Part shown: one piece after another, positions 6,215 to 63,816 of the stretch
How the letters are laid out: every line of letters begins with the position of its first letter
How positions within the stretch are numbered: the stretch's first letter is position 1
Translations under genes and position numbers: made by a program
Notes under the pieces: generated by a model
The model's input: only the letters and a program-made list of their open reading frames with translations
Told to the model about the DNA's origin: nothing
The model's database searches: none
Assembly (NCBI GenBank): GCA_044224405.1
Contig: JBGAKN010000005.1
Location: 15,725-79,724 of the forward strand
DNA: 64,000 nucleotides
Source: Tagaea sp.
Lineage (GTDB): Bacteria > Pseudomonadota > Alphaproteobacteria > CACIAM-22H2
Reading direction: 5' to 3'

Positions 6215-7078
6215 TCAGGGGTTCCGCTCGACGACGAATGCCCAGAAAAGCGGGTGCCGCGCAGGTGCACCGTCATCGGCCGCCAGAGCCTGGGCCAGCG
6301 CCGCTCGATACGCGTCGGGCTCGGCGTTTCGCCGGTCAGCCCGACCGCGCAGCAGCGGCCATGTGATCCAGCGCCAGTGGAGCGCAACCGACGCCGGGCC
6401 GCCAAGCGCGACGGCCGTGCAGCGTGTGCCGGGCGCCTGCAGCGCCGCGATATCCGCCAGCGCGCCGGCCGGGTACTGCCGGAATCCATGGAACAGATAG
6501 AGCCGCAGGCACGCCGGCGACGGCAGATAGTGGATCTGCAGTGTCGGCCCTGACGCCTTCGCACAGGCGCGCGCGACGGCGGAAAAATAATCGAGATCGG
6601 CCGGGATGTGTTCCGCCGCCGACTGAGAGAAGAAGAAATTGTCGACCGGCGAAATCGTGGCGGCGAAATCACGACCATCGAAGACCAACATGTGTGCGCC
6701 ATCCATGGGCTCGGTCCACGTCGCATTCGCACGGACGTCGAATCCGCGATAGGCGATCGGTATGCCGGCCGCCGCCGCGACCAGCCGGCCCGCACGGCCC
6801 GAGCCGCAGCCCATCTCGTGCATCCGGATCCCGCCGGCCGACCGCGCGAACGCCGCCCAGCCGAAAGCCGCGAGGTGGCGTTCACAGAGCACGCGCGACG
6901 GCGACGGCGTGCCAGTGATGGTGCCAGACGGTGCGCCGTCGAATCGTGCGCGGGCAAGCGCGCCCGATCCGCCGGCAAGTGCGTTGCGCGCCGCGTTGGC
7001 ACCGAGATAGGCGAGCTTCGCGAAGCGGCCGAGCGGGCGGTCACCGTCGATTGCGATCGGCGAAGTGGAACGGTTCAT
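6215..7078 (-). CDS. class I SAM-dependent methyltransferase
   Basis: Motif I HEMGCGSGRAG is present. The start was taken at MNRSTSP, which gives a 4-nt overlap with the upstream GT2 stop. Confidence 0.5.
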   Translation of the reverse strand: MNRSTSPIAIDGDRPLGRFAKLAYLGANAARNALAGGSGALARARFDGAPSGTITGTPSPSRVLCERHLAAFGWAAFARSAGGIRMHEMGCGSGRAGRLVAAAAGIPIAYRGFDVRANATWTEPMDGAHMLVFDGRDFAATISPVDNFFFSQSAAEHIPADLDYFSAVARACAKASGPTLQIHYLPSPACLRLYLFHGFRQYPAGALADIAALQAPGTRCTAVALGGPASVALHWRWITWPLLRGRADRRNAEPDAYRAALAQALAADDGAPARHPLFWAFVVERNP

Positions 7079-8112
7079 CCCGTCACGCGGCGGCGCAGGA
7101 CACCGGCGATCTGGGGCACCAGCAGGCAAGCGGCATCGAGCGGCGCACGCACCGACAGGTGCAGGATCCGTCCGAGTAGCGCGAACCGCGCCGCCCCCAT
7201 CGGACGCACCAGCCAGGTGCGAAACGCCAGCGCGCCTGCCGCACGGCGCGCACTCGCCGCATCGGGCCGACGCGCGAGATAGGCATCCGTCAGGTCAAGC
7301 AGCACGCGCAATGCATGCGCGGGTGCGACGGGCTTCGTGTCGCACACGATCCGCGAACCGTGCACGGCCGCGTATATGCCCGCGAGCTCTTCCGGCGTGA
7401 CACGAACACCCGTCTCAGTCGCCACGCGGCGCGCGCCGAAACGCAGGCTCATCGCCTGCTGTTCGCCCAGCCGCAGGACCGAGATGTTGTTGCCGTGCAC
7501 GCGATAGGCAACCATGTCGGCAGCGAGGTTGGCGATCTGCGAATGCGCGAGCAGGCGGTCCCACAGATCGTAATCCTGATTGGCGCCGTACTGCTCGTCG
7601 AAATAATGGCCGGTGCGCTCGATCACGTCGCGCCGCAGCGTCACGGCCGGGTGATGGAACGGGTTGCGCGTCATGCTGAGCCAGCGCAGCGCCGCATCGT
7701 CCGTCGGCAGCGGCGAGCGTTCGAGGGCGCGCCCCACGCCGTCGATCATGCGCACCGAACCGCCGACGATGCCCACATCGGGATTCGCATCGAGGAAGGC
7801 GACCTGCCGGCGGAAACGGCCCGGCAGGCAGAGATCGTCGGCATCGAGGCGCGCGATATAGGTGCCGCGGCACAGGCGCAGGCCGATATTGAGCGAGGGC
7901 GTCTGCCCGCGATTGCGTTCGTTGACGTGCAGGCGGATGCGCGGATCGCCGACCGCGCGCACGACGTCGACGCTGCCGTCGCTCGATCCGTCGTCCACGA
8001 TCACGAACTCGAAATCGGTGAAATCCTGCGCGAGCACGCTGTCAATCGCGGGGCGTAGGTAGGCGCCGCCGTTGTAGACCGTCATCAGGACGCTGAGCAC
8101 GGGCGATTTCAT
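7075..8112 (-). CDS. glycosyltransferase family 2
   Basis: N-terminus SVLMTVYNGGAYL...FEFVIVDDGSSDGS and DxD region ARLDADD are present. Start MKSPV at 8112 overlaps the upstream stop. Confidence 0.7.
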   Translation of the reverse strand: MKSPVLSVLMTVYNGGAYLRPAIDSVLAQDFTDFEFVIVDDGSSDGSVDVVRAVGDPRIRLHVNERNRGQTPSLNIGLRLCRGTYIARLDADDLCLPGRFRRQVAFLDANPDVGIVGGSVRMIDGVGRALERSPLPTDDAALRWLSMTRNPFHHPAVTLRRDVIERTGHYFDEQYGANQDYDLWDRLLAHSQIANLAADMVAYRVHGNNISVLRLGEQQAMSLRFGARRVATETGVRVTPEELAGIYAAVHGSRIVCDTKPVAPAHALRVLLDLTDAYLARRPDAASARRAAGALAFRTWLVRPMGAARFALLGRILHLSVRAPLDAACLLVPQIAGVLRRRVTG

Positions 8113-8840
8113 TTCGGCTCCAGCACGGCCCAGATCTCGCCCCAGCGCAGCTGGATCTCGCGCACGTGCATGCCGGCAGCGGCGGCCTCGGCCTCGAACT
8201 CGACCTGGGTGTGCTCGGTCTCGTGCGTCGAATCCGAACGCCATTCGATCCCGAGTTCCTTCTTCAGCGGCACCGTCCAGTCACGCTCGAAGTTCGGGAC
8301 GCGGATCAGGAGGCGGCGCGCATTCGTCTCAATCGCGAGGCGGCGCAGCAGCGCGGATCGGTCGGGCAGATGTTCCAGCACGTTCGACATCGCGACGACG
8401 TCGAAACCGCCTCCGGGAATCGCGCGCAGGATGTCGCCCGTCTCGAACGTGACGGCGGGATGCGCATGCAGGCGGCGCGCCTTCTCGATGTTCGCAGGCA
8501 CGATATCCACGCCCACGACCGTGGCGCCGCCATCCGCCGCCATCCGCTGCGCGAGATAGCCGTTGCCGCAGCCGACATCCAGTACGCGCTCGCCGGCCGA
8601 GACTCGTGCGATGAAGAAATCGTGATAGCGCATGTGCCGGTGCTTGGGATGCACGCCATCGCCGTAGCGCACCGCCTCATGGGCAAGCGCGTTGTCGAGG
8701 CGTGCCTGGATCGCGAACAGGAAGCGCAATCCCATGTCCGGCGGCAGTCCGCGCGCGCGCGCGGCCGCGACAAGCCCGATTGCCCGTGCCAGCAGGCCGG
8801 CCGGCACGATGCGCAGCAGCAGTTCGAGCGCGCGCATCAT
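8109..8840 (-). CDS. class I SAM-dependent methyltransferase
   Basis: Motif VLDVGCGNGYL and the post-I acidic motif are present. Start MMRAL at 8840 overlaps the upstream stop by 4 nt. Confidence 0.65.
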   Translation of the reverse strand: MMRALELLLRIVPAGLLARAIGLVAAARARGLPPDMGLRFLFAIQARLDNALAHEAVRYGDGVHPKHRHMRYHDFFIARVSAGERVLDVGCGNGYLAQRMAADGGATVVGVDIVPANIEKARRLHAHPAVTFETGDILRAIPGGGFDVVAMSNVLEHLPDRSALLRRLAIETNARRLLIRVPNFERDWTVPLKKELGIEWRSDSTHETEHTQVEFEAEAAAAGMHVREIQLRWGEIWAVLEPK

Positions 8841-10018
8841 GCCGCGACCGCCGAGAGCACGCGCAGTTCGCGTTCGAGCGTGAGGTCGAGCGAGTCGTTC
8901 GCGACCACATACGCGCGCGCCGCCGTACCGAGGCGTGCCGCGAGAGCGCCTTCCCCGAGAACGCGGGCGAGCGTTGCCCGGATCGCCGCGGCGTCGGTTC
9001 CGCAAAGAAGGCCGGTTTCGCCGTCGCGCAGGACTTCGCGGATGCCGGGGCTGTCGGCACCCACCGATGGGAGTCCGCAGGACATGGCTTCGAGCAACGC
9101 CTTGGGATGGCCTTCGAAATGCGAGGGCAGGACGAACGCGTCCGCCGCCGCGAAGACGGATGGCAGGGTGCCATGCGGCACGTTGCCTAGGAACCGCACG
9201 TCGACGCCCGTGCGCGCGGCGAGTTCCGCCATCCCGGCGCGCAGGCTCCCCTCGCCCACCACGGTCAGCGTCGCGTCGATGCCGGCCATCGCCTCGACCA
9301 GTGCCAGCGGATTCTTCTGCGTTTCGAGCCGCCCGAGAAACAGCACGTTCGGGCGCGTACCCGCGGCACGCGCGACACGTTGGGGGCGAAGCAGATCGGT
9401 ATCGACAAAATTGGGAATGACCGAGCATCTCGACGGCACGACGCCGTGCGTCTCGACCGCCAGTCGCCAGATTTCCGGCGTGGAGCCCACGACATGCGCC
9501 GCCGCGCGGAACGCCGTCCGTTCGGTGCGCAGGGCGCGGCGGGTGCGTGCGTCATCCGGCCCGTATTCGCGCGTGCAGAATGTCGACCACGGATACCCGC
9601 AGCGCGCGACCAGCGGCGCGCGCGCGCGCCAGGCCAGCTTCAATATATGCTGTGCACCGCTCAACTGGTTGGTCTTGACGATGCAGGAACCGGGAAAGAC
9701 GTACGGAAACGTCGCGAACAGCCAGGCCATCCAGACAGGCCAGCTCCAGCCCTGCCGGTTGTGGACGAGGCTGATTCCACCGAGCCGTTCGCGGAATTGC
9801 TCGTCGCCGCCGCGCGACCATGTCGCGATCGTTATCCGTCCGAAATGGCCGAGCAGCCGGCGATAGAGCGCCAGCTCGCGATCGAGCATGCCGATCTTGT
9901 CGTAGAGCTCCAGCGTCGAGGCATATTCGAGAAACAATACGAGATGACGGTCCTTCAGCCGTTGCATATCCGGCGGCGGCAGGGCGTTCTCGGGCAGAAG
10001 TCCGACGGGAAACGACAT
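8837..10018 (-). CDS. glycosyltransferase family 4 (GT-B)
   Basis: C-terminal GT4 signature is present (EGHPKALLEAMSCGLPSVGADSPGIREVL..GETGLL). Confidence 0.7.
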   Translation of the reverse strand: MSFPVGLLPENALPPPDMQRLKDRHLVLFLEYASTLELYDKIGMLDRELALYRRLLGHFGRITIATWSRGGDEQFRERLGGISLVHNRQGWSWPVWMAWLFATFPYVFPGSCIVKTNQLSGAQHILKLAWRARAPLVARCGYPWSTFCTREYGPDDARTRRALRTERTAFRAAAHVVGSTPEIWRLAVETHGVVPSRCSVIPNFVDTDLLRPQRVARAAGTRPNVLFLGRLETQKNPLALVEAMAGIDATLTVVGEGSLRAGMAELAARTGVDVRFLGNVPHGTLPSVFAAADAFVLPSHFEGHPKALLEAMSCGLPSVGADSPGIREVLRDGETGLLCGTDAAAIRATLARVLGEGALAARLGTAARAYVVANDSLDLTLERELRVLSAVAA

Positions 10019-15967: not shown

Positions 15968-16609
15968 CTATCCTGCCCGCTTTTCGAAAAGCCACCAGGT
16001 GAGATTGTCGAGACCGGTCAGCGGCTTCCAGAAGAAGCCGTAGTCGACGATCTGCAGGTCGGGGAAGTTCTCGAGATAGAACGAGCCGAAATCCCGCTTG
16101 AACAGGAAGCCCTTCTCGCCGCGATAGATGATGTCTTCGGGGTTCGGCGAGAAATATTCGGCACAGGCGATATAGCGTCGGGAGACGCGGTGTATCTGCC
16201 GGCACGCGGCCAGCAGGTTCGCCGGCGCGATATGGATCAGCACACCGCTCGTGAACGCCATGTCGAAGGCGCCGTCCGGCGCCTTGATGTCCTCGGCGGA
16301 GCCCATCACGATCCGGTCCTGCGGGACGATCCCGTCGGCGACGAGGCGTGCGCGCGCCTTCTCGAATGGTTCAAGCGCCGAAAGCTTCGCGCGCGTCAAG
16401 CAGCCGAGCGCACGAAGGTTGTTGCCAACATTTGCACCGACTTCAAGGAAGCTTTCCGGCGGCCGGTGCGCAAGCGGCGACAGCATGCGCGCCCACATCG
16501 CCGTCCGCGACTGGAGCAATTCGGCCGACGGCGCGTTGCGGTCGACATAACCGTCCCCAAAGCTGCCCTTCCAGAATCTGAGTTGATCGGTTTCCATGCT
16601 CTCCGCCAT
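15968..16609 (-). CDS. class I SAM-dependent methyltransferase (pseudaminic-acid-biosynthesis-associated methylase-like)
   Basis: Motif LEVGANVGNNL is present. It sits inside the nonulosonate gene block. Start taken at MAESMETDQ. Confidence 0.45.
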   Translation of the reverse strand: MAESMETDQLRFWKGSFGDGYVDRNAPSAELLQSRTAMWARMLSPLAHRPPESFLEVGANVGNNLRALGCLTRAKLSALEPFEKARARLVADGIVPQDRIVMGSAEDIKAPDGAFDMAFTSGVLIHIAPANLLAACRQIHRVSRRYIACAEYFSPNPEDIIYRGEKGFLFKRDFGSFYLENFPDLQIVDYGFFWKPLTGLDNLTWWLFEKRAG

Positions 16610-16613
16610 TTTT

Positions 16614-17369
16614 CTAGCCGTTGGTCCTGCCAATACGCTTCGTGTCCCGGTGCGCCGCGTTGATCTGCGCGATCTCCGGTCTCGATTCGAGAATGCGGCA
16701 GATATTCCGCCAGTCGTCGCCGCTACCGTCTGCGGGAAGGATCGCGAACAGCGCCCTGAAAAACTCCAGGTCCGCCGGATAGTCCAGCGTCCATCTGTGC
16801 TCGACCCGGACGCCACCTGGCCCCTTCAGCGCCGCACGCCGGATGCCGGGTTCGCGCCGCAACCACGGGGTAACATGCTCCCGGTCTTCGGATGCCGTCG
16901 CGTGCCGCGCCGCCTGTTCCAGCGCGTCGCGGGTCATCGCTTCGCAGTCCAGTCCGTGCGGGAATCCCGGCGGCATGTTGTTCGCCGCGTAGTCGGCCGA
17001 TTCGGCGCGACGCAAGGCCAGTACCTCGCCGCAGAGCTGCGGATCGATAAGTGGGCAGTCGGACGTCACGCGCAGGACCTCCTCCGCATCGAAGGCCGCG
17101 GCTGCAAGCCGGTAACGCTCGAGCACGTCGGCGGTCGGCCCGCGCACGACGGTGGCACCGGCGCGCGCGGCTTCCGCAGCGACTGGATCGTCGGCCGGCG
17201 CATCGGCGACAGCACAGCAGACGGCCGTTGCGCTCGGTATCCGCGCACAGCGTGCCAGCACTTCGGCAAGAACCGTGCGTGCGCCGAGACGCTCGAGCAC
17301 CTTGCCCGGCAACCGCGTCGATCCGAAGCGCGCCTGCACGACGATCAGCGTTCTCGGGGCCGCACTCAT
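16614..17369 (-). CDS. cytidylyltransferase, CTP_transf_3 family (second SpsF/PseF-like copy)
   Basis: Motif QARFGSTRLPGKVL is present. It is a paralog of 12922-13674. Confidence 0.6.
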   Translation of the reverse strand: MSAAPRTLIVVQARFGSTRLPGKVLERLGARTVLAEVLARCARIPSATAVCCAVADAPADDPVAAEAARAGATVVRGPTADVLERYRLAAAAFDAEEVLRVTSDCPLIDPQLCGEVLALRRAESADYAANNMPPGFPHGLDCEAMTRDALEQAARHATASEDREHVTPWLRREPGIRRAALKGPGGVRVEHRWTLDYPADLEFFRALFAILPADGSGDDWRNICRILESRPEIAQINAAHRDTKRIGRTNG

Positions 17370-18124
17370 GTCCGCCGAACCGGAAGGCCGGCTTCGCGCA
17401 GAGCCTCGCGAACCTCGCGTGGCGTCGTTTCGGTAAACTGGAATATCGCGCCCGCCGCGACGCTCGATGCCCCGCCGTCGCGCACGGCGGCGACGAAATC
17501 GGCCGCACAGCTTGCCCCGCCTGACGCAATCACTGGGATCCGGACCGCGCGCGCCACCTGGCCGATCAGCTCGGTGTCGTAACCGCACATTGCCCCGTCG
17601 CGTTCGACGGATGTGAGCAGGATTTCGCCGGCGCCGCGCGCCTCAGCCTCACGGGCCCACGCAACAGGATCGCGTCCGGTCGGGCGCGTCGCCGAATGGG
17701 AATGGACCTCGTAGCCCGACGGTGTGCGACGCACGTCGATCGCCACGACGATGCACTGGACGCCGAAGCGCAGCGCCCCCTCCTCGATAAGCGACGGCTG
17801 GGCAAGTGCGGCGGTATTGATGCTGACCTTGTCGGCGCCGACCATCAGCAGTTTCTCGATGTCGCCAACGTCGCGCACGCCGCCGCCCACGGTCAGCGGC
17901 ATGCTGCAATCGTCGGCCAGTTCGTCGATCAGGCCGAAATCCGGCGCGCGGCCGTCGCGGGTGGCGGCGATGTCGAGGAAAAGCAGTTCGTCGACATCGC
18001 GCAGGTTGAAGACGCGGACCGCCTGGGCGGCCGTGCCGATCCGACGGTCGGCGGCGAAGCCGACGCCTTTGACGAGACCGACATCGCGATGAAGCAGCGT
18101 CGGGATGATGCGGATCTTCAGCAT
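17366..18124 (-). CDS. imidazole glycerol phosphate synthase cyclase-subunit paralog (HisF/WbuZ-like)
   Basis: Start MLKIRIIPTLL.. and (beta/alpha)8 HisF motifs are present. It is embedded in the glycan locus next to HisH and amidotransferase paralogs. Confidence 0.75.
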   Translation of the reverse strand: MLKIRIIPTLLHRDVGLVKGVGFAADRRIGTAAQAVRVFNLRDVDELLFLDIAATRDGRAPDFGLIDELADDCSMPLTVGGGVRDVGDIEKLLMVGADKVSINTAALAQPSLIEEGALRFGVQCIVVAIDVRRTPSGYEVHSHSATRPTGRDPVAWAREAEARGAGEILLTSVERDGAMCGYDTELIGQVARAVRIPVIASGGASCAADFVAAVRDGGASSVAAGAIFQFTETTPREVREALREAGLPVRRT

Positions 18125-18747
18125 CAGGACTGCCCGATCGCCAGGAAATTGCGCAGCACGCGCTGGCCCGGCTTCTGGCTCTTTTCGGGATGGAATTGGG
18201 TCCCGTAGATGTTTTCCCTGCGGACCGACGAGACGATCCCGCCGCAAGCCGGCGTCCTTGCCGCGACATTCCCGGCCGGACAGGCAAAATGATAGGAGTG
18301 CACGAAATAAAAATCGGTACCCGGCTCGATTCCTTCAAACAGCGGCGAACCGGGGAGCGCAACGACCGCGTTCCAACCCACATGCGGGACGCGCTCGTCC
18401 GGCGAGCCCGGCTCCAGTTTGCGCACCTCACCCGGCACGAGTCCGAGGCCTGCGACCGCTTCATGCTCGTGGCCGATCTCGGCAAGAAGCTGCATCCCCA
18501 GACAGATCCCGAGCATCGGCACATGTCGGCGTGCGAGTTCCCCACGCAGTTCGTCCGCCAGTCCGCTTTCGACGAGATTGCGCATGGCCGCCGGAAAGGC
18601 GCCGACGCCGGGCAGGACAATGTGGCTTGCCGCCGACAGCCGGCCGGCCGTGCGCACGAGATCGACCGTCGCGCCCTGCTTGACGATCGCGCGCGCGATC
18701 GAATCGATATTGCACAGGCGGTAGTCGATGATGGCGACTTCAGGCAT
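18124..18747 (-). CDS. glutamine amidotransferase HisH paralog (WbuY-like)
   Basis: Class I GATase catalytic Cys region GICLGMQLL and a C-terminal HPEKS segment. Start MPEVAIIDY. Confidence 0.75.
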   Translation of the reverse strand: MPEVAIIDYRLCNIDSIARAIVKQGATVDLVRTAGRLSAASHIVLPGVGAFPAAMRNLVESGLADELRGELARRHVPMLGICLGMQLLAEIGHEHEAVAGLGLVPGEVRKLEPGSPDERVPHVGWNAVVALPGSPLFEGIEPGTDFYFVHSYHFACPAGNVAARTPACGGIVSSVRRENIYGTQFHPEKSQKPGQRVLRNFLAIGQS

Positions 18748-18764
18748 CGGTATGGGCCACTGCC

Positions 18765-19910
18765 TCAGGTTACCGGCGCGACCCGGATCGGCCTGCCGGT
18801 CGCGTCCTTCAGCAGCTTGCCGGCGGCATCCGACTTGAAGATCTTCTTGTTCGTGAAGCGATCGCAGATCGCGACGAACTCGTCGGTGGTCATTCCGATC
18901 TCGGCGAGGATCTCGGCGAGCGGCCGGCCGAGATAGGTGGCAGGGAACGCACCGTCGTGCCGCCGGACGATCTCGAGACCGTCGCGCCGCGTCAGGCGGC
19001 CCCGCCGGACATGGTTGTTGACGATGTCGGTGGCGCGGCCGAACCCGAATTTCAGGTATTTGAAATAGTCGTGGATGCCGGTCTGGTAGTTGTCGAGATT
19101 CTCGTAATTGACGCTTGCGCCCTCGACGGTCTGCGGGAACGTCTCGAAACCGAACGCCTGGGAGATGAGCGCGTTCTGGTAGCCGTCCCACGGGAAATAG
19201 TAGCCGAGGAAGAGGCCCGTGACGCCCACGCGCTTGAGTTCGGCATCGGACGGATACTGGTATTGGATGAGGTATTTGGAATCGATCTGCGCCTCTGCTG
19301 CCAGATCGGCGACGCGCAGGCCGAGAAGCCCGCCGAACTCCTCGAGCCAGCGTCGGTCGAGCGTGCTGCTTTCCTGGTTGGTTGCAGGGCCGCCATACTC
19401 GTTCTGCGGGTTCTCGCCCCAGACGATGAGCCGGATTCCCATCTGCACGGCCACGCGCACGGGGATCGTGAAGATCGTCACGTGTTCAGGCCACGAGATG
19501 TCGCCGACCTCGCGCAAGGCAAGGCGGTTGAGCTGGCGGCGGATCACCGGGTTGACCGTGACCTCGACATAGTCGACGCCAAGCCGCTTGATGTTCTCGA
19601 TGTTCCGCCGGCCGAGATCCGACAGCGAGTCCGTCGTCGCCGTGACGCAGAGCGGGTTCAGACCCTGCTGGAGGAGACGGATCACCTGGTAGGTGCTGTC
19701 CTTGCCGCCGGAAACCGGAACGATGCAGTCGTAGTTGGAACGGTCGGCGCTACGGTGGCGATCAAAAATCTTGGTGAATTCTTCCTGCCGCCGGTCCCAG
19801 TCGATCTCCGTGCGACGCGAGAACGCAGCGCAGGCCGCGCACACGCCGTTCGAATCGAATGTCAGATCCGGCTTGGAGTCGGGATAGAGGCAGGATTTGC
19901 AGTGACGCAT
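18765..19910 (-). CDS. N-acetyl sugar amidotransferase (PP-loop ATP pyrophosphatase; WbuX/PseA-like)
   Basis: N-terminal Cys cluster (CKSCLYPD...CAACAAF) and PP-loop SGGKDS. Start taken at MRHCKSC. Confidence 0.7.
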   Translation of the reverse strand: MRHCKSCLYPDSKPDLTFDSNGVCAACAAFSRRTEIDWDRRQEEFTKIFDRHRSADRSNYDCIVPVSGGKDSTYQVIRLLQQGLNPLCVTATTDSLSDLGRRNIENIKRLGVDYVEVTVNPVIRRQLNRLALREVGDISWPEHVTIFTIPVRVAVQMGIRLIVWGENPQNEYGGPATNQESSTLDRRWLEEFGGLLGLRVADLAAEAQIDSKYLIQYQYPSDAELKRVGVTGLFLGYYFPWDGYQNALISQAFGFETFPQTVEGASVNYENLDNYQTGIHDYFKYLKFGFGRATDIVNNHVRRGRLTRRDGLEIVRRHDGAFPATYLGRPLAEILAEIGMTTDEFVAICDRFTNKKIFKSDAAGKLLKDATGRPIRVAPVT

Positions 19911-19947
19911 CGCGAAGACCCCGTGAGGTGTTGGACGTTGTCGGCCG

Positions 19948-21138: not shown

Positions 21139-21168
21139 CTTGCGTGGCCGTTTCCCGTCTTGTCCGGT

Positions 21169-22221: not shown

Positions 22222-22258
22222 CGTGTCCTCGCCAAGCTTCCGTGCGCCTGCGGTCCGA

Positions 22259-54226: not shown

Positions 54227-54958
54227 TCAGCCGACCGAACGCACGACCAGGGCCACTTGCTGGTGCGAGAACGCGAAATAGTCGGCGATGACGCCCGCCC
54301 GTTCGGCGAACTCGCGCCATGCTTTGTGCTCGCCCTGGCGCCAGCCGCGATAGCCGAAATATTCGTCGAAGACGATCACCGTACCCGGCACGATACGCGA
54401 GCCGATCTCGGCAAGCGCGGCGCGCGCCGCGGGATACGTGTCGCAGTCGATATGCACGAAGGCGAACGGGCCCGGGTTCTCCGACAGGAACCCGGGAAGC
54501 GTCGCGTCGAACCAGCCTTTGACCAGCGTCACGTTCGGCCCGACGGGCGGCAGCGTGCCGCCACGGTCGAACGTGCCCTTCGGGCAGCCGGCGCCCGCCC
54601 AGTCCTCCTGAAGCCCTTCGAAGCTGTCGAACCCGAAGATGCGTCGCGCGCCGAGCCGCCGCGCGAAATGATTGATCGACTGGCCGTTCCACACGCCGAA
54701 CTCGGCACACAGGCCCTGGATCGGCGCGCGGGCGAGCGCGAAATCCCACAACGCCTCGCGCGACTTGAACGTCAGCGCGCCGGACATGTGCGCGGCCGCA
54801 TAGTCGGCGCTGTCGGCGATCGATCTTTGATGCAGTTCATCGACGACCGAGTGGCCGGTCGCCGTACGCATCTTCAGAAACGCGACCAGCGGCACGAGCG
54901 TGCGGTCCAGCACGCGTACGACCATTGACCGAAATCCGCCACCACCGATCTGTGCCAT
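54227..54958 (-). CDS. TylF/MycF-family O-methyltransferase
   Basis: Motifs LCAEFGVWNGQS and FVHIDCDTY are present. Confidence 0.55.
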   Translation of the reverse strand: MAQIGGGGFRSMVVRVLDRTLVPLVAFLKMRTATGHSVVDELHQRSIADSADYAAAHMSGALTFKSREALWDFALARAPIQGLCAEFGVWNGQSINHFARRLGARRIFGFDSFEGLQEDWAGAGCPKGTFDRGGTLPPVGPNVTLVKGWFDATLPGFLSENPGPFAFVHIDCDTYPAARAALAEIGSRIVPGTVIVFDEYFGYRGWRQGEHKAWREFAERAGVIADYFAFSHQQVALVVRSVG

Positions 54959-58017: not shown

Positions 58018-59175
58018 TCATGCGCCGGCACTGGCAAGCGAACGATACAGGCGCGCATATGCCGCCGCACAGATCTGCGCGTTGAACTCCGCCGTCGCGC
58101 GTGCGCGGCCGGCAGCACCCATCGCGCCACGCAGCACCAGATCTGCGCCGACGGCGGCAAGCGCGGACAACAGCGAGACCGGGTCGTGCGGGGCCACGAG
58201 CAGACCCGTCGTCCCGTCGTCGACCGCATCCGGAATGCCGCCCGTGCGCGTCGCGACGACGGGCAGGCCGGCCGCCATCGCCTCGATGACGGCGTTCGGG
58301 AATCCTTCCTCGTGGCTTGCCAGCACGCCGATATCGGCTGCAGCCAGAATATCCGGCACGTCGCCGCGCGGTCCCAGCCAGCGCACGCGCCCGGCGATGC
58401 CGGCCGCTTCGGCCTGCGCCTGCAACGCGGGGCCGATGCCGTCATCGCGGCCCGCACACCACAGTTCCCATGCCGGCAGGCCACGCGCGGCGGCGAGTGC
58501 GGCGAGCAGGTCGGCGTGTCCCTTGTAGGCGATCAGATTGGCGACGCAGACGAAGACCAGCGTATCGGGCGCGGTGCCGATCGCGGCACGTACCGCCGCG
58601 CGTGGCGCCGGAGCGGCAAACCTCGAAAGATCTATTCCGTTGCGGATCAGATGCAGGCGATCGCGCGGTGCGCCTTCCGCAACGAGATCGTCGAGAACGG
58701 CCTGGCTGTTTCCGAGCAGTGCGTGCATGCGTCCATGCAAGGCCCGTTCGACGCGCGCCAGTAACGGCCACTTCGCCTGATAGTCGTTGAGCGAGCGCCG
58801 GCTCATCACGCGCCGGGCACCGCTCGTCAGCAGCGCCACCGGCGCGCCCGCCAGATAGGCCTCGGGCAGGAAGAAGTGGACGATGGCCGGCCGCCAGCGT
58901 CGCAAGAACGCGGCGAGAGAAAGGCCGGCACGCATAGCGCGCAGCGCCCGGCCGGCGAAGCCGCCGGCACGCGAACCCGCTTCGCTGCCGGGCGGCGCGA
59001 TCACGCGGATGCCCGCCGCCTCGAACCTGTCGGCGAGCGCGCCGCGCCCCGTAAGCGTGTGGACCGCAATCTCGAAGCCCGATGCGGCGATCGCGGGCAA
59101 CACCTGCAGCAGATGCATCTCCGCCCCACCGACATCGAGGCTGCCGATCACGATCAGCACGCGCGGGCGGTTCAT
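58018..59175 (-). CDS. glycosyltransferase family 4
   Basis: Start MNRPRVLIVIGSLDVGGAE and a C-terminal EGFPNAVIEAMAAGLPVVAT...GTTGLL. Confidence 0.7.
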   Translation of the reverse strand: MNRPRVLIVIGSLDVGGAEMHLLQVLPAIAASGFEIAVHTLTGRGALADRFEAAGIRVIAPPGSEAGSRAGGFAGRALRAMRAGLSLAAFLRRWRPAIVHFFLPEAYLAGAPVALLTSGARRVMSRRSLNDYQAKWPLLARVERALHGRMHALLGNSQAVLDDLVAEGAPRDRLHLIRNGIDLSRFAAPAPRAAVRAAIGTAPDTLVFVCVANLIAYKGHADLLAALAAARGLPAWELWCAGRDDGIGPALQAQAEAAGIAGRVRWLGPRGDVPDILAAADIGVLASHEEGFPNAVIEAMAAGLPVVATRTGGIPDAVDDGTTGLLVAPHDPVSLLSALAAVGADLVLRGAMGAAGRARATAEFNAQICAAAYARLYRSLASAGA

Positions 59176-60206
59176 GCCGTCCCCCGCATCCGAAGCGCGA
59201 GTAGGGCCGGCCCGAGCACGGGCACCTTGCGCGCGAAACGGCGCCACGGATGAAGCGCATGCTCGCGACGTGCTTCGATCACGCGGCGCGCCAGATCGCC
59301 CGCGGCAAATTCCGGCGTCGGGCCGAAGCGGCGCCAGAAGGCACGATCGGCCCATGCGTCGTACCCTACGATGGCTTTCGCATTGAAATCGACAATGGCC
59401 TGACGCTGCCCGTCGGCCGCCATCAAGGCCGCCGCGCGCGAGAAGCTGGAATTGCACAGCGCCAGCATGTCCGCTTCGCGCATCGCGACGAGATCGTCGA
59501 GCACCGCGCCAAGGCCGGTATCAGGTGCCGCCAACGGCGCATAGTCCGCGAATTCGGCGGTGATCGACGCACGATCGTCGGTCGCGAGATAGAGGCGCGG
59601 GTTCGGCAGCGCCGGCCAGATACGCGCAAGCCAGTCGCGGTACCACGCGACAGGCGCAATTCGGAAATGCGGATTTGCCACCGGGTCGAAGGAAGCGAAA
59701 TCACCGCGACGCACATGGATGGCGACCAGCGTCGTGCCGGAAGGCGCATGCGCCGCCCGCCATGCCGCGACTTTCGCTTCGACATCCGGGCGCAGGCGCA
59801 GCAGCCGGCGCGCGTGACCGCGGTGGCGTGTCCAGCTTTCCGGGATTTCCTGGAAATAGCCGTCGAAATCCATATCGACCGGCGGATCGTCGGCGTTCCA
59901 CAGGGCGAGTGCCGCACGATCCTCGAACGGGCCGAAGCGCATGACGGGGAGGTCACCCTTGCGCAGCTTCGCGGCCGGCGGCGGCACTTCGAGGGCTTTG
60001 CCTTCCGGCCATTCCGGCATCGCGACGGACAGGCCGTTGCGCAGCGCATAGAAATTAAGAAACAGGTACTGAATGAGCCGATTGCCCAGCCGCCCGTTCT
60101 GGCCGAAATTCGACATCGCGACGATGCCGCGCACGGCGTTGCCGGTCGGCAGCAATCCAGCGTCGAAATCCCGGCGACGCGCGGCGATGGCAGCGATGTC
60201 GGTCAT
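59172..60206 (-). CDS. hypothetical glycosyltransferase, GT11 (alpha-1,2-fucosyltransferase)-like
   Basis: An N-terminal GNRLIQY and an HVRRGDF motif resemble GT11/GT23-type signatures. The real start may be MSNFGQ at 60116. Confidence 0.35.
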   Translation of the reverse strand: MTDIAAIAARRRDFDAGLLPTGNAVRGIVAMSNFGQNGRLGNRLIQYLFLNFYALRNGLSVAMPEWPEGKALEVPPPAAKLRKGDLPVMRFGPFEDRAALALWNADDPPVDMDFDGYFQEIPESWTRHRGHARRLLRLRPDVEAKVAAWRAAHAPSGTTLVAIHVRRGDFASFDPVANPHFRIAPVAWYRDWLARIWPALPNPRLYLATDDRASITAEFADYAPLAAPDTGLGAVLDDLVAMREADMLALCNSSFSRAAALMAADGQRQAIVDFNAKAIVGYDAWADRAFWRRFGPTPEFAAGDLARRVIEARREHALHPWRRFARKVPVLGPALLALRMRGTA

Positions 60207-60247: not shown

Positions 60248-60931
60248 TTGTCGCTGCTTTCGCGTCTCTTCGGCCGCAAGGCCAAGCCCGCCGGACCCCC
60301 GCCGCTGCTCGATCTCGCCGACCTCGCCCGGACTCACGGGCTGGCGATCGAGGGGGTCGTGCATGTCGGCGCCAATCACGGCGGCGAGGTTGCGACTTAC
60401 AAGGCGCTGGGTGCCCGGCGCATCGTGCTGGTCGAGGCGAACCCCGAACTTGCCCGCGCACTCGAAAAGACGTTCGCGGGCGATCCCGCGATCACCATCG
60501 CATCCGTCGCGGCCGGCGAAGCGGACGGCGAGGCGGATTTCCACCTGACCTCGTTCGACCAGTCGAGCTCGCTGCTGAAGCTCAAGCGTCACGCCAACAT
60601 CTATCCCGAGATCGTCGCGTCCGGCACGATCCGCGTGCCCGTGCGCCGGCTCGACGGCGTGCTTGCCAGGCGCGGGCTCGATGGCGCGCGCTTCGACCTG
60701 CTGTCGCTCGATATTCAGGGCGCCGAGCTGATGGCGCTGCGCGGATGCCCCGATTTGCTCGCGCGCGTTTCGGCCGTGAGCTGCGAACTCTGCTTCGAGG
60801 AACTCTACGAGGGTTGCGCGCTCGCATCCGACATCGACGCGCATCTCGCGAAATCCGGTTTCGTGCGCGTCGCCACGACGACTCCCTACCATTCGAGCTG
60901 GGGCGACGGTTTTTACGTGCGAAAGGGCTGA
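60248..60931 (+). CDS. FkbM-family methyltransferase
   Basis: Motifs VVHVGANHGGE and RFDLLSLDIQGAEL are present. Confidence 0.6.
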   Translation: MSLLSRLFGRKAKPAGPPPLLDLADLARTHGLAIEGVVHVGANHGGEVATYKALGARRIVLVEANPELARALEKTFAGDPAITIASVAAGEADGEADFHLTSFDQSSSLLKLKRHANIYPEIVASGTIRVPVRRLDGVLARRGLDGARFDLLSLDIQGAELMALRGCPDLLARVSAVSCELCFEELYEGCALASDIDAHLAKSGFVRVATTTPYHSSWGDGFYVRKG

Positions 60932-60940: not shown

Positions 60941-61630
60941 ATGGGCGCGATTGATTTCGGTATTCCCAAGCAACTGGCGCTGCTGCTGCGCGACAAGCTG
61001 GCGCTGAAGCTGTTCGTCGAGACGGGCACGTTCCGCGGCGATACCGCCCAGTGGGCGGCCGGTCAGTTCGCCAAGGTATGGACCGTGGAGGCCAACGCCG
61101 ATCTGTTCACATCCACGCGCGAGCGCCTCAAAGGCACGACCAACATCGTGTGCGTGCAGGGCGACAGCCGGGCGGGCCTGCGCGAGATCGTCCCGCAGCT
61201 CGACGCCCCTGCCCTGTTCTGGCTAGACGCGCATTGGTGCGGCGCCGACCAGACCGATACGGCAGGTGCGGAAGACCAATGCCCGCTGATCGACGAGATC
61301 GCCATCATCAACGCCAGCCCGCACGAGCATGTCGTGCTGGTCGACGACGCGCGCTATTTCCTCGCCCCGCCGCCGTCGCCCAACCGGCTCGAAATGTGGC
61401 CCGATACCGAGGCGACGGTCGCCGCATTGAAAGCCGGCCGCAGCGACCGCTACGTCGCCGTCATCGACGACGTGTTCATCCGAGTGCCGATGGCAATGCG
61501 CGGCGAGGTGCAGGGCCATGTCGACCGGCTGACCGCGCATCGCGAAGCCCGTGCGCGCAAGCGCGACGCGCGCCCGTTGCGCCGCTTCAAACGCTTCCTA
61601 AAAGCCCTAGTGCTGTATCTTAAGATCTGA
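60941..61630 (+). CDS. hypothetical protein, class-I-MTase-like (TylF/CmcI-like fold)
   Basis: Motifs FVETGTFRGDTAQWAA and FWLDAHW are present. This is a weak call. Confidence 0.3.
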   Translation: MGAIDFGIPKQLALLLRDKLALKLFVETGTFRGDTAQWAAGQFAKVWTVEANADLFTSTRERLKGTTNIVCVQGDSRAGLREIVPQLDAPALFWLDAHWCGADQTDTAGAEDQCPLIDEIAIINASPHEHVVLVDDARYFLAPPPSPNRLEMWPDTEATVAALKAGRSDRYVAVIDDVFIRVPMAMRGEVQGHVDRLTAHREARARKRDARPLRRFKRFLKALVLYLKI

Positions 61631-61675
61631 AGTCTGGTACTGGGAGTGGGCAGCTACGTCTTTCGACCATCGGTT

Positions 61676-61972
61676 CTATTTATTTTTCAACCTATAATAC
61701 TCAAGCGGTAACGCCATAAGGAACAGCTTGGAAAGCGATGGCACGAAAAACATTACAATCGCGGTTTTGATCAGGAAATTATTCGAATCAACCGATTCCT
61801 CGACACTCAAGCCGCGCAGCAGTACGTCGACGTATATCAAGGTCATCGACAGCAGTGACGGAAAATACCAGAAACAGACCTCGGCAAGATAAAAGCGCCG
61901 TTCGGCCTTGGACAAAAGAATATCTGTTTCGATCTCATGCAGGTCGTGGATTTTATTGCTCTCTTTTGACAT
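61676..61972 (-). CDS. hypothetical small hydrophobic protein inside a low-GC island
   Basis: 98 aa with two hydrophobic segments. Its AT-rich codon usage is unlike the rest of the window, and it may not be expressed. Confidence 0.2.
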   Translation of the reverse strand: MSKESNKIHDLHEIETDILLSKAERRFYLAEVCFWYFPSLLSMTLIYVDVLLRGLSVEESVDSNNFLIKTAIVMFFVPSLSKLFLMALPLEYYRLKNK

Positions 61973-62041
61973 GGGCTTTCTCGAACAACTAATCTACGCA
62001 AGCGACATCATGCCAGAAGTCAAATATTTCCGCATGAGGAA

Positions 62042-63012
62042 TCAGATGTCGCGCCTACGGGTATTCGCAAGCCGAATTTTTTGCTTCAGTTTGGCGCCTT
62101 TCACCCCGCCACCAGCGCGATAGATCGCAAGCGTCGCTTCGATCAATTCCTCGTGCCGCCACAGGATCCCCGCCTTCGCCTGCAGATAGGCGAAGTGCGC
62201 GAGGCTCAGCGGGCCGACGCCGAACAGTTTGCGCCCACGCTTCCACGCGCGGTCAGCACAGCGGCGGAACGCAGCAAGACGCGGCGCGGTCCCGAGATCG
62301 GGATGGTCGCGCAGGAAGTTGAGCGCTGTCAGCGTTTCGTCGTGCAGGATCTGCGCGTCGTTCTTCATCAGTCGGCCGGGCTCGTCGGCTGGCCCGAGGC
62401 AGACGACCGCGTCGAACACGCCGATGCGTGCGCCCGGAACGGCCGCCACGCGCGGACAGATGCCCTGATCCTGGATGAATACCCGCTCGTCGCAGCCGCC
62501 AGCCGCGAGAAACAGCTCGCGTCGCACGAGTAGGTTCGAAGCACCCGACTGGCAGGTCGTCAATGCATCGCACACCGGATCGTCGAACACACGCGTGTGC
62601 GGGTCGGCGGGCAATGGCAAAAAATGCGGGCCTTCCGGCCCGTACCAGCCCATCCCGCCATAGACGAGGCCGAGCCCGTGGCGCTCGGCCTCGCCAAGCA
62701 GCAGGCGCACGGCACCGGGGGCGAGAAGGTCGTCGGCATCGACGAGCTTCAGCCACGTGCCCGTCGCCATGCGTGCGCCGGCGTTGGTGGCGGGCCCCGG
62801 CCCGGCATTCTCCTGGATCAGTATCCGCACGTTCGACGCATTGCGTGCGGCGATGTGCTTGCGCAGCAGTTCGGCCGAATTGTCGGTCGAACCGTCGTCG
62901 ACGAAGACGATCTCGGTCGCGCCGAGCCCCTCCTGCGCAAGGATGGCGTCGAGACACGCGGCCAGATAGGGCGCCTTGTTGTAGACCGTGACGACGAACG
63001 AGACGTCCGTCA
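62042..63012 (-). CDS. glycosyltransferase family 2
   Basis: Start MTDVSFVVTVYNKAPYL ... IVFVDDGSTDNS ... VDADD. Confidence 0.7.
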
Positions 63013-63816
63013 TCCGCCGACCTGCGCCACCGCCGGCGCGATGTCGGCGCGAACGAAAGTGAGCTGGCCCGCATGCCGCGCGGCGATGCGCCCAGCCCAC
63101 AGCGCATGCGTCGGCTCGAACATCGCCTGGATCGCACGCCGGTCGGGTTCGGAGTGGAACTCCAGATGCACGATCCGGATCGCAGGAAGGAATGGCGCAA
63201 GCGAGGAGAGGATCGGCAGTTCCGCGCCTTCCGTGTCGATCTTCAGGAGATCGATGGACGCAACGCCGGCCGCTGCCAGTGCGGGCCCGGCGGCGCGGAT
63301 CACGACCTCGCTGGCGACGGCATCGGTCATGTGGTGCCGGTACAGCGAGGCCGTCACGCTCGAATCGCGACCCATATAGAGCGGCAGGCGCGCGTCGCCG
63401 GCACCGAGTCCGAAGGCGAAAAGCTCGGCGCCCGCCACCGCGGCATTGCGCGACAGGAACGAGAGGGCCGCCGGGTTCGGCTCGAAACACAGGATGCGCG
63501 CCGAAGGATAGGCCAACCGCAGCCGCGCCGCCGCGATGCCGACGTTGGCGCCGATGTCGACGATGGTGGAGATGCCGCCGATGCCGGGGATCGTCGGGTA
63601 GCAATCTTCGCCGAGCACCTCGTGCGCGACATAGGCGATGCCCGGATCGTTCGGCACGTCGAGCGCCAGCGTCCGCCCGTCGCCGCCGTGCACGACGATC
63701 CGGCGCGCGGTCCCGGCCGACGCGCCGAACAGGCGCGCAAGCTTGCGGTCGAGCCGTTCGCCGAGGCTGCGTCTGCGGCGCGCGCCGTCGAGCCAGAATT
63801 CGTCGTTTGAGACCAT
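63010..63816 (-). CDS. FkbM-family methyltransferase
   Basis: Motifs IVDIGANVGI and LLKIDTEGAEL are present. Start taken at MVSNDEF. Confidence 0.55.
   Translation of the reverse strand: MVSNDEFWLDGARRRRSLGERLDRKLARLFGASAGTARRIVVHGGDGRTLALDVPNDPGIAYVAHEVLGEDCYPTIPGIGGISTIVDIGANVGIAAARLRLAYPSARILCFEPNPAALSFLSRNAAVAGAELFAFGLGAGDARLPLYMGRDSSVTASLYRHHMTDAVASEVVIRAAGPALAAAGVASIDLLKIDTEGAELPILSSLAPFLPAIRIVHLEFHSEPDRRAIQAMFEPTHALWAGRIAARHAGQLTFVRADIAPAVAQVGG

Follow-up and report, generated by a model that had tools for sequence, protein, structure and literature searches.

The window analysed here, a stretch of 64,000 nucleotides from the MAG of an uncultured alphaproteobacterium, Tagaea sp., contains a region of ~58 kb in which the initial annotation had counted about 11 methyltransferases (MTs), a density it called exceptional, and from which it predicted a heavily methylated glycan with near one-to-one pairing of glycosyl transfer and methylation steps. 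The question raised by this locus is whether these genes all encode MTs and whether they serve the assembly of one glycan bearing many methyl groups.

Eleven methyltransferase genes in a surface-glycan island

The eleven MT coordinates correspond to real ORFs, each read in the frame whose third codon positions are richest in GC (11/11). Two longest-ORF calls, 8109-9428 and 47879-49108, were over-extended, the true genes being 8109-8840 and 47879-48625, respectively. The curated Pfam gathering thresholds for MT families were passed by 9 of the 11 ORFs, and glycine-rich SAM loops were read in all 11. On the reverse strand, class I SAM methyltransferases were assigned to MT_B (8109..8840, 243 aa, Methyltransf_25 61.7 bits, motif I VLDVGCGNG), MT_D (29187..30032, Methyltransf_25 35.3 bits, motif I VLELCAGSGRL, with a likely ATG at 30032, 14 nt past the upstream stop codon), MT_E (36628..37386, 252 aa, Methyltransf_23 42.1 bits), MT_F (46117..46887, 256 aa, Methyltransf_23 64.9 bits) and MT_G (47879..48625, 248 aa, Methyltransf_11 81.8 bits, TTG start). 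MT_C (15968..16609, reverse strand, 213 aa) was detected as a pseudaminic acid biosynthesis-associated methylase (TIGR03587 166.4 bits for a cutoff of 112; Methyltransf_11 30.7 bits). MT_H (54227..54958, reverse strand, 243 aa) is of the TylF/Methyltransf_24 type (44.8 and 49.0 bits, respectively), its nearest solved relative being the TDP-rhamnose 3'-O-MT CalS11 (E 6.2e-7). The FkbM family comprises MT_I (60248..60931, forward strand, 227 aa, PF05050 66.5 bits, TIGR01444 71.1 bits) and MT_K (63010..63966, reverse strand, PF05050 42.4 bits, TIGR01444 69 bits). The length of MT_K is at most 318 aa, its N-terminus being uncertain; its homologue in locus L020 has 268 aa.

The two remaining proteins gave no Pfam or NCBIfam match and were counted as MT folds because they combine conserved glycine-rich SAM loops with confident AlphaFold models matching MTs in the PDB. 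MT_A (6215..7078, reverse strand, 287 aa) is a divergent class I SAM methyltransferase whose motifs HEMGCGSGR, YxGxD and SQSAAEH are invariant in 19 homologues, two of which (P0022 and P0023) have Pfam MT domains. A profile search against the PDB ranked MTs on top (E 8e-4), and of the 50 Foldseek PDB matches listed for the AF2 model (pLDDT 87.5), with a best E of 1.5e-6, almost all were class I MTs, either solved or putative. MT_J (60941..61630, forward strand, 229 aa) belongs to a large family without Pfam model (Pfam domains in 0 of 1016 homologues), in which the loop VETGT.RG.T is found and D96, D135 and D136 are invariant. Its model (pLDDT 90.1) matched only MTs among the 50 Foldseek matches listed, the best being the cation-dependent O-MT-like structures 3tfw, 3ntv and TrmR (E 2e-7). 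Judging from sequences and models, all 11 are SAM-methyltransferase-fold proteins; the initial count holds, nine by Pfam and two by fold and SAM loop, as do its FkbM (60248, 63010), TylF-type (54227) and "MTase-like" (60941) assignments.

These single-domain proteins (213 to 318 aa) represent at least 7 unrelated MT families, and none of the 11 has a characterised close homologue. Identities of 32-41% were found only among MT_B, MT_F and MT_G, and only across the SAM core. The 11 MTs are not recent duplicates.

The island surrounding them is a surface-polysaccharide locus of about 55 genes, with about 12 glycosyltransferases (GTs) including GT2, GT4 and GT9 genes, the latter alongside KpsS/KpsC-like proteins. 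For 11 MTs out of ~55 genes, the binomial P(>=11) is 1e-8 if 2% of all genes are assumed to encode MTs and 8e-5 if 5% do, the assumed range of 1-5% of a genome being a general rate and not one derived from this genome. The density is therefore far above background. It is not unprecedented: a relative shares the MT-bearing blocks, other glycan loci, both related and unrelated, reach 3-5 MTs in 20 kb, with MTs and GTs intermingled in distant loci of other phyla, and the phenolic glycolipid locus of Mycobacterium tuberculosis is locally denser in MTs, with 4 sugar O-MTs and 3 GTs for PGL-tb within Rv2954c-Rv2962c (PMC3594219). The island is an unusually rich case of a known kind of locus, not a new kind.

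Coupling of methyltransferases to glycosyltransferases

Five of the 11 MTs (MT_A, MT_B, MT_F, MT_G and MT_K) are gene-coupled to GTs, all on the reverse strand. The first block (10018-6215) has the ordering GT4-MT-GT2-MT: it starts with a GT4-family gene (8837..10018, 393 aa, Glycos_transf_1 109.6 bits), followed by MT_B, a GT2-family gene (7075..8112, 345 aa, Glycos_transf_2 111 bits) and MT_A, joined by three ATGA overlaps at 8840/8837, 8112/8109 and 7078/7075. In the second block (49755-46117, GT-MT-GT-MT), the GT1/GT4-like genes GTc (48622..49755, 377 aa, Glyco_trans_1_4 47.1 bits) and GTb (46890..47882, 330 aa, Glyco_trans_1_4 28.4 bits) alternate with MT_G and MT_F. There the TTG start of MT_G lies on the GTc stop codon in a TTGA overlap (48625/48622) with GGAGAG upstream, GTb overlaps the MT_G stop codon by an ATGA (47882/47879), and the ATG of MT_F, preceded by GGGAGG, stands 2 nt past the GTb stop codon (46887/46890 gap). 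The third unit (63966-62042) is an FkbM-GT2 pair, in which MT_K is followed by a GT2-family gene (62042..63013, 323 aa, Glycos_transf_2 98 bits) with an ATGA overlap at 63013/63010. Stop and start codons overlap at seven junctions in all. Through these 4-nt overlaps, the five coupled MTs are co-transcribed and translationally coupled with the GT genes, as the initial annotation had proposed for the alternating blocks.

The same blocks, GT-MT pairs included, are retained in a 76%-identical relative, where GT4-MT-GT2-MT and TylF...FkbM-MT_J-GT2-FkbM are both syntenic on a 4.45-Mb contig. The gene calls of the 345-aa GT2 and the 393-aa GT4 recur in loci L002 and L006. The MT_B family adjoins a GT1-family GT in five loci: L006, L015 and three from further genomes (L021, L022 and L023), in which the homologues have 55-59% identity and a 4-nt overlap with the GT occurs twice. 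Both L013 and L018, from Rhodospirillales and Magnetovibrio MAGs, keep the GTb-MT_F pair (E 4e-77 and 9e-78). Conservation of the pairs in the relative, and of the MT_B and MT_F families also in distant bacteria, speaks for a functional pairing, and a methylated glycan becomes the sensible prediction.

The best 120 MT_B homologues included no GT-MT fusion protein, so that the pairing is without Rosetta-stone support; the family has at least 846 stand-alone members. Overlap or adjacency of genes is in itself evidence of co-expression, not of a substrate relation.

Methyltransferases in sugar-precursor neighbourhoods

The proposed near one-to-one pairing is supported in part: only five of the 11 MTs are coupled, and at least 3 others (MT_C, MT_E and MT_H) lie in a sugar-precursor or tailoring context and not next to a GT. 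The island encodes a pseudaminic acid pathway and a second NeuB-type pathway, with 2 NeuB genes and 3 CMP-type cytidylyltransferases. The pseudaminic acid core and acetamidino module (17366..23296, reverse strand, also among the L001 gene calls) consists of HisF (17366-18127) and HisH (18124-18747), both detected by His_biosynth/GATase Pfam matches, WbuX (18765-19910, 319 bits), and PseC (19948-21138), PseI (21169-22221) and PseB (22259-23296), with 430.8, 480.2 and 514 bits, respectively, all above equivalog cutoffs. MT_C belongs to the same run, together with a CMP-type cytidylyltransferase, and adjoins the WbuX/HisH/HisF amidino module. It would probably act on a pseudaminic acid derivative and could possibly N-methylate its acetamidino group, the reaction that PtmH and Legionella ORF8 carry out on legionaminic acid; N-methylation of acetimidoyl-Leg provides the precedent (PMC3766260).

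MT_E lies between a HAD phosphatase, whose stop codon it overlaps by an ATGA, and a PseF-like cytidylyltransferase (CTP_transf_3), near a NeuB+cupin fusion (38027-39562) and a GFO/IDH/MocA gene. Its probable substrate is the second nonulosonic acid, either ahead of CMP activation or following it. This second pathway is possibly Kdn-like; a Sinorhizobium fredii polysaccharide with 5-O-methyl-Kdn is among the work cited in PMC9000132. MT_H, like CalS11 and TylF, would probably act on a nucleotide-6-deoxyhexose or on a sugar residue. Finally, MT_D is flanked by a KpsS/KpsC-like protein and an Antibiotic_NAT-type acetyltransferase, in the vicinity of an adenylation/carrier protein, a PhyH-type oxygenase and an N-acetyltransferase.

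Assembly of a methylated glycan and alternative readings

We consider it likely that a single large surface-glycan island of the LPS O-antigen or capsule type spans the sequence from 6215 to past 63966, working as an assembly line towards a glycan with many methyl groups. Each coupled MT would methylate the sugar just added by its partner GT, or the acceptor that this GT needs, and the non-coupled MTs would act earlier or later than the GT steps. The mycobacterial PGL, GPL and MMP loci offer a parallel, with position-specific, sequential O-MTs beside GTs, as described for PGL-tb (PMC3594219) and for MMP with ManT, MeT1 and MeT3 (PMC9883506). From its gene content, the island product is probably a heavily methylated glycan; MT genes and methyl groups may differ in number, three cluster MTs of Tannerella forsythia yielding only two such groups (PMC6120980).

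The density could also result from the clustering of several independent glycan systems (O-antigen, nonulosonic-acid capsule, core or other decoration) with 1-4 MTs each, which we regard as possible but doubtful. The genes are organised in several transcription units on both strands, some of them divergent, and an HTH and NusG-like regulator pair (50968-52187) sits mid-island; more than one glycan is thus possible, and the methyl load per glycan could be modest. The two NeuB pathways, the three cytidylyltransferases, the KpsS/KpsC-like proteins with their GT9 gene and a Wzy_C protein at the distal end of the relative's island point the same way, as does the island middle, which differs between window and relative while both end blocks are kept. 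However, the window holds a single exporter candidate, an ABC gene (11053-12909), the two end blocks share one stretch of ~61 kb in the relative too, and the parts of a three-way split would each stay MT-rich, with four MTs counted over 6215-16609 and 29187 together, and six in 46117-63966. That one or more GT-coupled MTs are instead chain-terminating enzymes, which set polymer length or mark export without methylating every repeat, seems rather unlikely. WbdD makes such a methyl cap in Escherichia coli O8/O9a. An ABC exporter is present while no Wzx flippase was detected within the window, MT_A and MT_F are terminal in the two operon blocks, and the reducing end of MMP is blocked by the 1-O-methyl group added by MeT1 (PMC9883506). 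Yet the exporter candidate, with TMD and NBD fused in one half-transporter (ABC_membrane type), is not a Wzm/Wzt pair and showed no carbohydrate-binding extension, a WbdD-like kinase or coiled-coil domain is absent from all 11 MTs, and five caps would go far beyond need.

Several of the proteins might, lastly, not be sugar MTs at all, but inactive scaffolds, enzymes of other chemistry or MTs for non-glycan substrates (lipid, protein, or a pseudaminic acid acyl side chain). Non-MT enzymes, CmcI-type proteins for example, are members of the Methyltransf_24 clan, MT_A and MT_J are missed by all curated family models and have only moderate structural matches (TM-scores ~0.4-0.55), and the neighbours of MT_D suggest acyl or aminoacyl side-chain tailoring. 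We hold this to be improbable, given the conserved or invariant SAM loops and downstream acidic residues in MT_A and MT_J homologues, the nine proteins above curated thresholds and the location of all 11 within the glycan island.

Besides the assigned GTs, an ORF divergent from the MT_I/MT_J pair (59172..60206, reverse strand, 344 aa) gave no Pfam or NCBIfam match and carries the motif HVRRGDF, which we take to resemble motif I of alpha-1,2/1,6-fucosyltransferases; it is a probable GT11/GT23-like, fucosyl-type transferase. Locus L020 retains this candidate together with MT_H, adjacent MT_I and MT_J, and the GT2-MT_K pair.

Identity of the eleven methyltransferases

The initial annotation had counted 11 SAM-dependent methyltransferases (MT_A to MT_K) in the island of surface-glycan genes. 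Because the GC content of the window is 62-70%, long spurious ORFs are plentiful, and third-position GC was therefore used to choose frames. About 70 candidate ORFs selected in this way were scanned against Pfam and NCBIfam. Real genes were found at all 11 annotated coordinates. Spurious high-GC ORFs were ruled out, since each of the 11 lies in the frame of highest third-position GC and several are called identically in public assemblies. An origin of the methyltransferase number in recent duplications was also ruled out by an all-against-all BLASTP, in which identities of 32-41% were found among MT_B, MT_F and MT_G only, confined to some 100-150 residues of the SAM core.

Curated Pfam thresholds for methyltransferase families were exceeded by 9 of the 11 ORFs. 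MT_B (at 8109, 61.7 bits) and MT_D (at 29187, 35.3 bits) matched Methyltransf_25, MT_E (36628-37386, minus strand, 42.1 bits) and MT_F (46117-46887, minus strand, 64.9 bits) matched Methyltransf_23, and MT_C (15968-16609, 30.7 bits) and MT_G (47879-48625, minus strand, 81.8 bits) matched Methyltransf_11. MT_C was also recognised by the NCBIfam model TIGR03587, 'pseudaminic acid biosynthesis-associated methylase', with 166.4 bits for a cutoff of 112. The FkbM assignments proposed at 60248 and 63010 were confirmed, MT_I (60248-60931) and MT_K (63010-63966, minus strand) both scoring above the cutoffs of PF05050 (66.5 and 42.4 bits, respectively) and TIGR01444 (71.1 and 69 bits, respectively). 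MT_H (at 54227) matched TylF (PF05711) with 44.8 bits for a cutoff of 23, over an alignment limited to profile positions 172-251 of 264, and Methyltransf_24 (PF13578) with a higher score of 49.0 bits. Its nearest solved relative is CalS11, a TDP-rhamnose 3'-O-methyltransferase (E-value of 6e-7 over 73 residues); CalS11 and the TylF/MycF enzymes serve antibiotic pathways and not surface polysaccharide. The glycine-rich SAM-binding loop of motif I (E/DxGxGxG-like) was detected by pattern match in 9 ORFs and, by direct reading, as ILEIGPKDG in MT_E and VVHVGANHG in MT_I. No further methyltransferase was found with Pfam, NCBIfam or phmmer among the unannotated ORFs of the window.

The two other ORFs, MT_A (6215-7078) and MT_J (60941-61630), matched no family in Pfam or NCBIfam. 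Searching the PDB with either single sequence gave no meaningful matches, and profiles and structure predictions were needed. For MT_A, 22 homologues were found in addition to itself; they all come from uncultured bacteria, and those with a named origin are Alphaproteobacteria. Pfam methyltransferase domains are present in two of these homologues, with identities of 42% and 36%, and the HEMGCGSGR, YxGxD and SQSAAEH motifs are invariant in the alignment. The MT_A profile retrieved almost only methyltransferases from the PDB (best E-value of 8e-4). With its AlphaFold (AF2) model (pLDDT of 87.5), nearly all of the 50 PDB matches listed by Foldseek were class I SAM methyltransferases, with a best E-value of 1.5e-6 and a TM-score of about 0.45.

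The MT_J family numbers more than 1000 'hypothetical proteins' from many phyla, among them Bacteroidota, Planctomycetota, Chloroflexota, Deltaproteobacteria and Alphaproteobacteria; no member contains a Pfam domain, and neither Pfam nor NCBIfam has a model for the family. A VETGT.RG.T loop, D96, D135 and D136 are invariant among its homologues. The AF2 model (pLDDT of 90.1) retrieved methyltransferases in all 50 listed Foldseek matches to the PDB, the best being the cation-dependent O-methyltransferase-like proteins 3tfw, 3ntv and TrmR (E-values around 2e-7, best 2.4e-7); TM-scores of the matches of MT_A and MT_J were only 0.42-0.54. The MT_J profile gave marginal PDB matches (E-values of 0.005-0.06) to family-3 O-methyltransferases, restricted to the N-terminal 80 residues. 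MT_J was not filed as a member of the cation-dependent O-methyltransferase family 3 (CCoAOMT-like), to which the good resemblance of its predicted fold would liken it. We accepted MT_A and MT_J as methyltransferase-fold proteins placed in no named family, so that the count of 11 stands, with 9 ORFs above curated thresholds and 2 recognised by motifs, profiles and AF2 models. The MT_J family is further marked by invariant LDAHW, CP and DDAR motifs and by a long helical hairpin at the C-terminus.

Coupling to glycosyltransferases

The alternation of glycosyltransferase (GT) and methyltransferase genes and their translational coupling were verified using resolved true starts, and these gene boundaries agree with independent gene calls on public contigs carrying identical proteins. 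The longest-ORF versions of the genes at 8109 and 47879 run too far, into the upstream GT genes. On the minus strand, a GT4 gene (8837-10018), MT_B (8109-8840), a GT2 gene (7075-8112) and MT_A (6215-7078) follow one another, each overlapping the next by ATGA. In a second minus-strand block, the GT1/GT4-like gene GTc (48622-49755) overlaps MT_G (47879-48625) by TTGA, MT_G overlaps GTb (46890-47882), also GT1/GT4-like, by ATGA, and GTb is separated by a 2-nt gap from MT_F (46117-46887). The FkbM gene MT_K (63010-63966) overlaps a GT2 gene (62042-63013) by ATGA, and a HAD gene (37383-38183) overlaps MT_E (36628-37386) in the same way, all on the minus strand. From this arrangement, five methyltransferases (A, B, F, G and K) are predicted to be co-translated with GTs.

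These pairings are conserved. In a relative of the island, a 76%-identical locus on the 4.45-Mb contig ERZ25074234 ctg13298 whose two end blocks are both syntenic with ours, the order GT4-MT_B-GT2-MT_A is kept in one end block (L006) and the FkbM-GT2 pair in the other (L020). Among the loci of other genomes, one exhibits the order GT4-MT_B-MT_A-GT2 and two keep the GTb-MT_F pair. Homologues of MT_B (55-59% identity) directly adjoin GT1-family GTs in three more genomes, with a 4-nt overlap in two of them. More generally, 4-nt-overlapped pairs, such as a GT1-family GT and an MT_B-family gene or GTb and an MT_F-family gene, are found again in loci of Rhodospirillales, Magnetococcus/Magnetovibrio, Thermodesulfobacteriota and Patescibacteria. 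The Rosetta-stone test detected no GT-MT fusion among the best 120 MT_B homologues, all of which are stand-alone proteins of 225-290 aa. From the conservation of the pairings we argue that each coupled methyltransferase (A, B, F, G and K) would methylate the product or the acceptor of its partner GT. Mycobacterial PGL and the alternating model of MMP, both described below, serve as precedents.

The initial annotation had predicted a heavily methylated glycan with near one-to-one pairing of glycosyl transfer and methylation. The glycan is likely to be methylated and GTs are likely to be paired with methyltransferases, but strict one-to-one pairing was an overstatement, five methyltransferases being coupled to GTs while MT_C, MT_E and MT_H are assigned to precursor modules. 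Alternating glycosylation and methylation has been proposed for the elongation of the mycobacterial 3-O-methylmannose polysaccharide (MMP), encoded by the meT1, mmpH, pmeT3 and manT cluster (PMC9883506). Like the island, this cluster is compact, with a GT and methyltransferases cooperating, but MMP, an intracellular homopolymer, is the product of a single GT, two methyltransferases and a hydrolase, and the island has no gene equivalent to the mmpH hydrolase. ManT adds up to three mannoses without methylation, so that strict alternation is unproven even for MMP. In the island, an alternation of this kind may be suggested by the GT-MT-GT-MT gene order, the overlapping codons and their conservation. 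Read most boldly, the recurrent overlapped pairs would point to a widespread, uncharacterised 'methyl-gated' assembly, in which a GT could work only once the preceding transfer had been followed by a methylation; the product would be a nearly per-methylated hydrophobic surface polysaccharide of environmental bacteria, and the MT_A and MT_J families would be dedicated parts. We consider this reading improbable.

Another possible explanation is that the terminal methyltransferases of each block cap the chain. The domain make-up gives no support to a WbdD-type O-antigen chain terminator: the methyltransferases of the island are all single-domain proteins of 213-318 aa devoid of kinase or coiled-coil, and the only ABC protein among the scanned ORFs is a half-transporter with fused ABC_membrane and ABC_tran domains, not a separate Wzm permease and a Wzt ATPase with a carbohydrate-binding module. 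Methylation of the product or acceptor of each partner GT is the preferred reading for the coupled enzymes.

Environmental glycan loci repeatedly contain runs of multiple methyltransferases. In a Thermodesulfobacteriota MAG (L009, 9860-12409), MT_A, MT_F and MT_B homologues are in direct tandem, and in another genome (L021, 9920-12375) a small unknown gene beside a polysaccharide deacetylase lies between two further class I methyltransferases.

Methyltransferase density and comparison with known loci

Between 6215 and 63966 we counted about 55 genes, including 11 methyltransferases (20%) and 11 to 13 GT-like genes. At genome-wide methyltransferase frequencies of 1-5%, estimated and not taken from this genome, the probability of finding at least 11 methyltransferases is 8e-12 to 8e-5. 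The relative has at least 8 methyltransferases and two radical-SAM genes in the 41 kb examined; no radical-SAM methylase was found in the window. More distant loci with MT_A homologues, from Thermodesulfobacteriota, Patescibacteria/Saccharibacteria, Rhodospirillales and Magnetovibrio, exhibit 3 to 5 recognisable methyltransferases per 20 kb, interleaved with GT4, GT2 and AsnB-like genes, in a sample biased by the choice of each locus for containing one methyltransferase.

The fair yardstick for this density is other glycan loci. In Mycobacterium tuberculosis, the PGL-tb genes Rv2954c-Rv2962c comprise four sugar O-methyltransferases and three GTs, disruption of the methyltransferase gene Rv2956 is polar on the GT gene Rv2957, and methylation is sequential, position-specific O-methyltransferases yielding multiply O-methylated deoxyhexoses (PMC3594219). 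The island resembles PGL-tb and the related GPL rmt/gtf genes, where position-specific SAM O-methyltransferases are interleaved and co-transcribed with GTs. Unlike the island product, PGL-tb is a Gram-positive-type glycolipid on a polyketide core, with 4 sugar methyltransferases against 11 and no nonulosonic acids, and the alternation of GT-MT-GT-MT with 4-nt overlaps is not described for it. As PGL-tb is locally denser than the island, the methyltransferase count is high in absolute terms but the phenomenon is already known. The density, first called exceptional, is thus far above the estimated background but was overstated in comparison with other methyltransferase-rich glycan loci, and the island is an unusually methyltransferase-rich case of a known kind of locus.

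Surface glycans become more hydrophobic when their sugars are methylated, and their recognition by antibodies, lectins and phages is altered; which enzyme methylates which position is rarely known beyond mycobacteria and a few pathogens. The island offers 11 candidate enzymes and five GT-MT pairs for in vitro work, and it brings to notice two methyltransferase-fold families missed by current family databases. Its value lies mainly in annotation and enzyme discovery and not in a new biological principle; as the host is uncultured, the predicted chemistry is hard to check.

Gene content of the island and roles of the other methyltransferases

The island adjoins lptD (3438-5663) on its left, and on its right it runs past the end of the window. 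In the relative, further GT4, epimerase, SDR, DegT, Wzy_C and GT4 genes follow, and purH marks the end of the island. The island is of the surface polysaccharide type, LPS O-antigen or capsule, and its product may be one glycan or several. PseB (514 bits), PseC (430.8 bits) and PseI (480.2 bits) all score above equivalog cutoffs. They are accompanied by a PseG-like protein (140 bits, below the PseG cutoff of 153.55) fused to a GNAT domain, itself a candidate PseH, a PseF-like gene (115 bits, below the cutoff of 205.7), the acetamidino-forming trio WbuX, HisH and HisF, three CMP-type cytidylyltransferases, three DegT aminotransferases, GT2, GT4 and GT9 genes and an AsnB-like amidotransferase. 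Neither Wza nor Wzc appeared in the window scans. The scans give no support for a flagellin-glycosylation island, as neither a flagellin nor a Maf (motility accessory factor) domain was detected in any scanned ORF.

MT_C lies within the run of the Pse module (PseB, PseC, PseI, WbuX), three genes from WbuX/HisH/HisF. Legionella pneumophila ORF8 and Campylobacter jejuni PtmH (Cj1325), which N-methylate acetimidoyl-legionaminic acid (PMC3766260), are likewise embedded in a nonulosonic-acid pathway that also makes the acetamidino group. By analogy, MT_C may N-methylate a Pse acetamidino group; the likeness is one of setting, as ORF8 and PtmH act on legionaminic acid whereas PseB/PseC/PseI point to a pseudaminic acid pathway. 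The 27-kb general protein O-glycosylation cluster of Tannerella forsythia also combines a Pse/Leg-type pathway with several GTs and methyltransferases, polycistronic there, but it belongs to Bacteroidota and lacks GT-MT alternation. Its three methyltransferases install two methyl groups on a protein-linked decasaccharide (PMC6120980), so that gene counts over-predict methyl counts.

A second nonulosonic-acid pathway is possibly encoded at 35901-40708 (minus strand), with a GFO/IDH/MocA protein, a divergent NeuB-cupin fusion (D-lyxose/mannose-isomerase-like), a HAD phosphatase, MT_E and the PseF-like cytidylyltransferase. MT_E stands between the phosphatase and the cytidylyltransferase, beside the NeuB-cupin gene, in a setting that resembles a Kdn-type pathway. 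This resemblance of the NeuB, HAD and CMP-transferase logic to Kdn synthesis suggests that the embedded MT_E may produce a methylated Kdn-like sugar; a 5-O-methyl-Kdn polysaccharide is cited in PMC9000132 as known from S. fredii. Two large paralogous proteins (30046-33374, minus strand, 25% identical) match Capsule_synth (KpsS/KpsC) at sub-threshold level only, and a 459-aa protein (34525-35904, minus strand) weakly matches the T. forsythia BFO_1060 GT family (26.9 bits; PMC6120980). These three proteins are candidate nonulosonic-acid transferases of poorly covered families. Between them, a split thiamine-diphosphate enzyme (33379-34520, minus strand) is encoded by two overlapping genes, one for TPP_enzyme_N and one for TPP_enzyme_C; as PEP mutase was not detected, a phosphonate role is not supported.

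MT_D is set among acyl-tailoring genes. The adjacent run at 24386-29176 (minus strand) comprises a DUF4910/DUF2172 aminopeptidase-like protein, a PhyH-type oxygenase, an adenylation enzyme with a carrier domain and an Antibiotic_NAT-type N-acetyltransferase, which hints at an amino sugar with an unusual acyl or aminoacyl side chain. The conserved pair of MT_I and MT_J is divergent from a gene whose protein exhibits an HVRRGDF motif, which we take to be reminiscent of fucosyltransferases. Directly upstream of the TylF-like MT_H, a 638-aa polytopic membrane protein (54965-56881, minus strand) with no family match could be a polymerase, a ligase or a GT-C-type enzyme. A 313-aa ORF at 45179-46120 (plus strand) has no family match either, and its HWDNHD...H pattern suggests a putative 2-oxoglutarate/Fe(II) oxygenase. 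The DegT-GT-MT-GT-MT operon is headed by genes for a 240-aa HTH protein and a 166-aa NusG-like paralogue at 50968-52187 (minus strand), a pair seemingly dedicated to antitermination or regulation of a long polysaccharide operon; in the relative (L020), the HTH gene is present and the NusG-like gene is absent. Close to the island but outside it, a heparinase II/III-like protein (905-2542, minus strand, 200 bits), flanked by a GDSL-like gene and by rpe/lptD, might be a polysaccharide lyase or an epimerase-type enzyme related to the island product.
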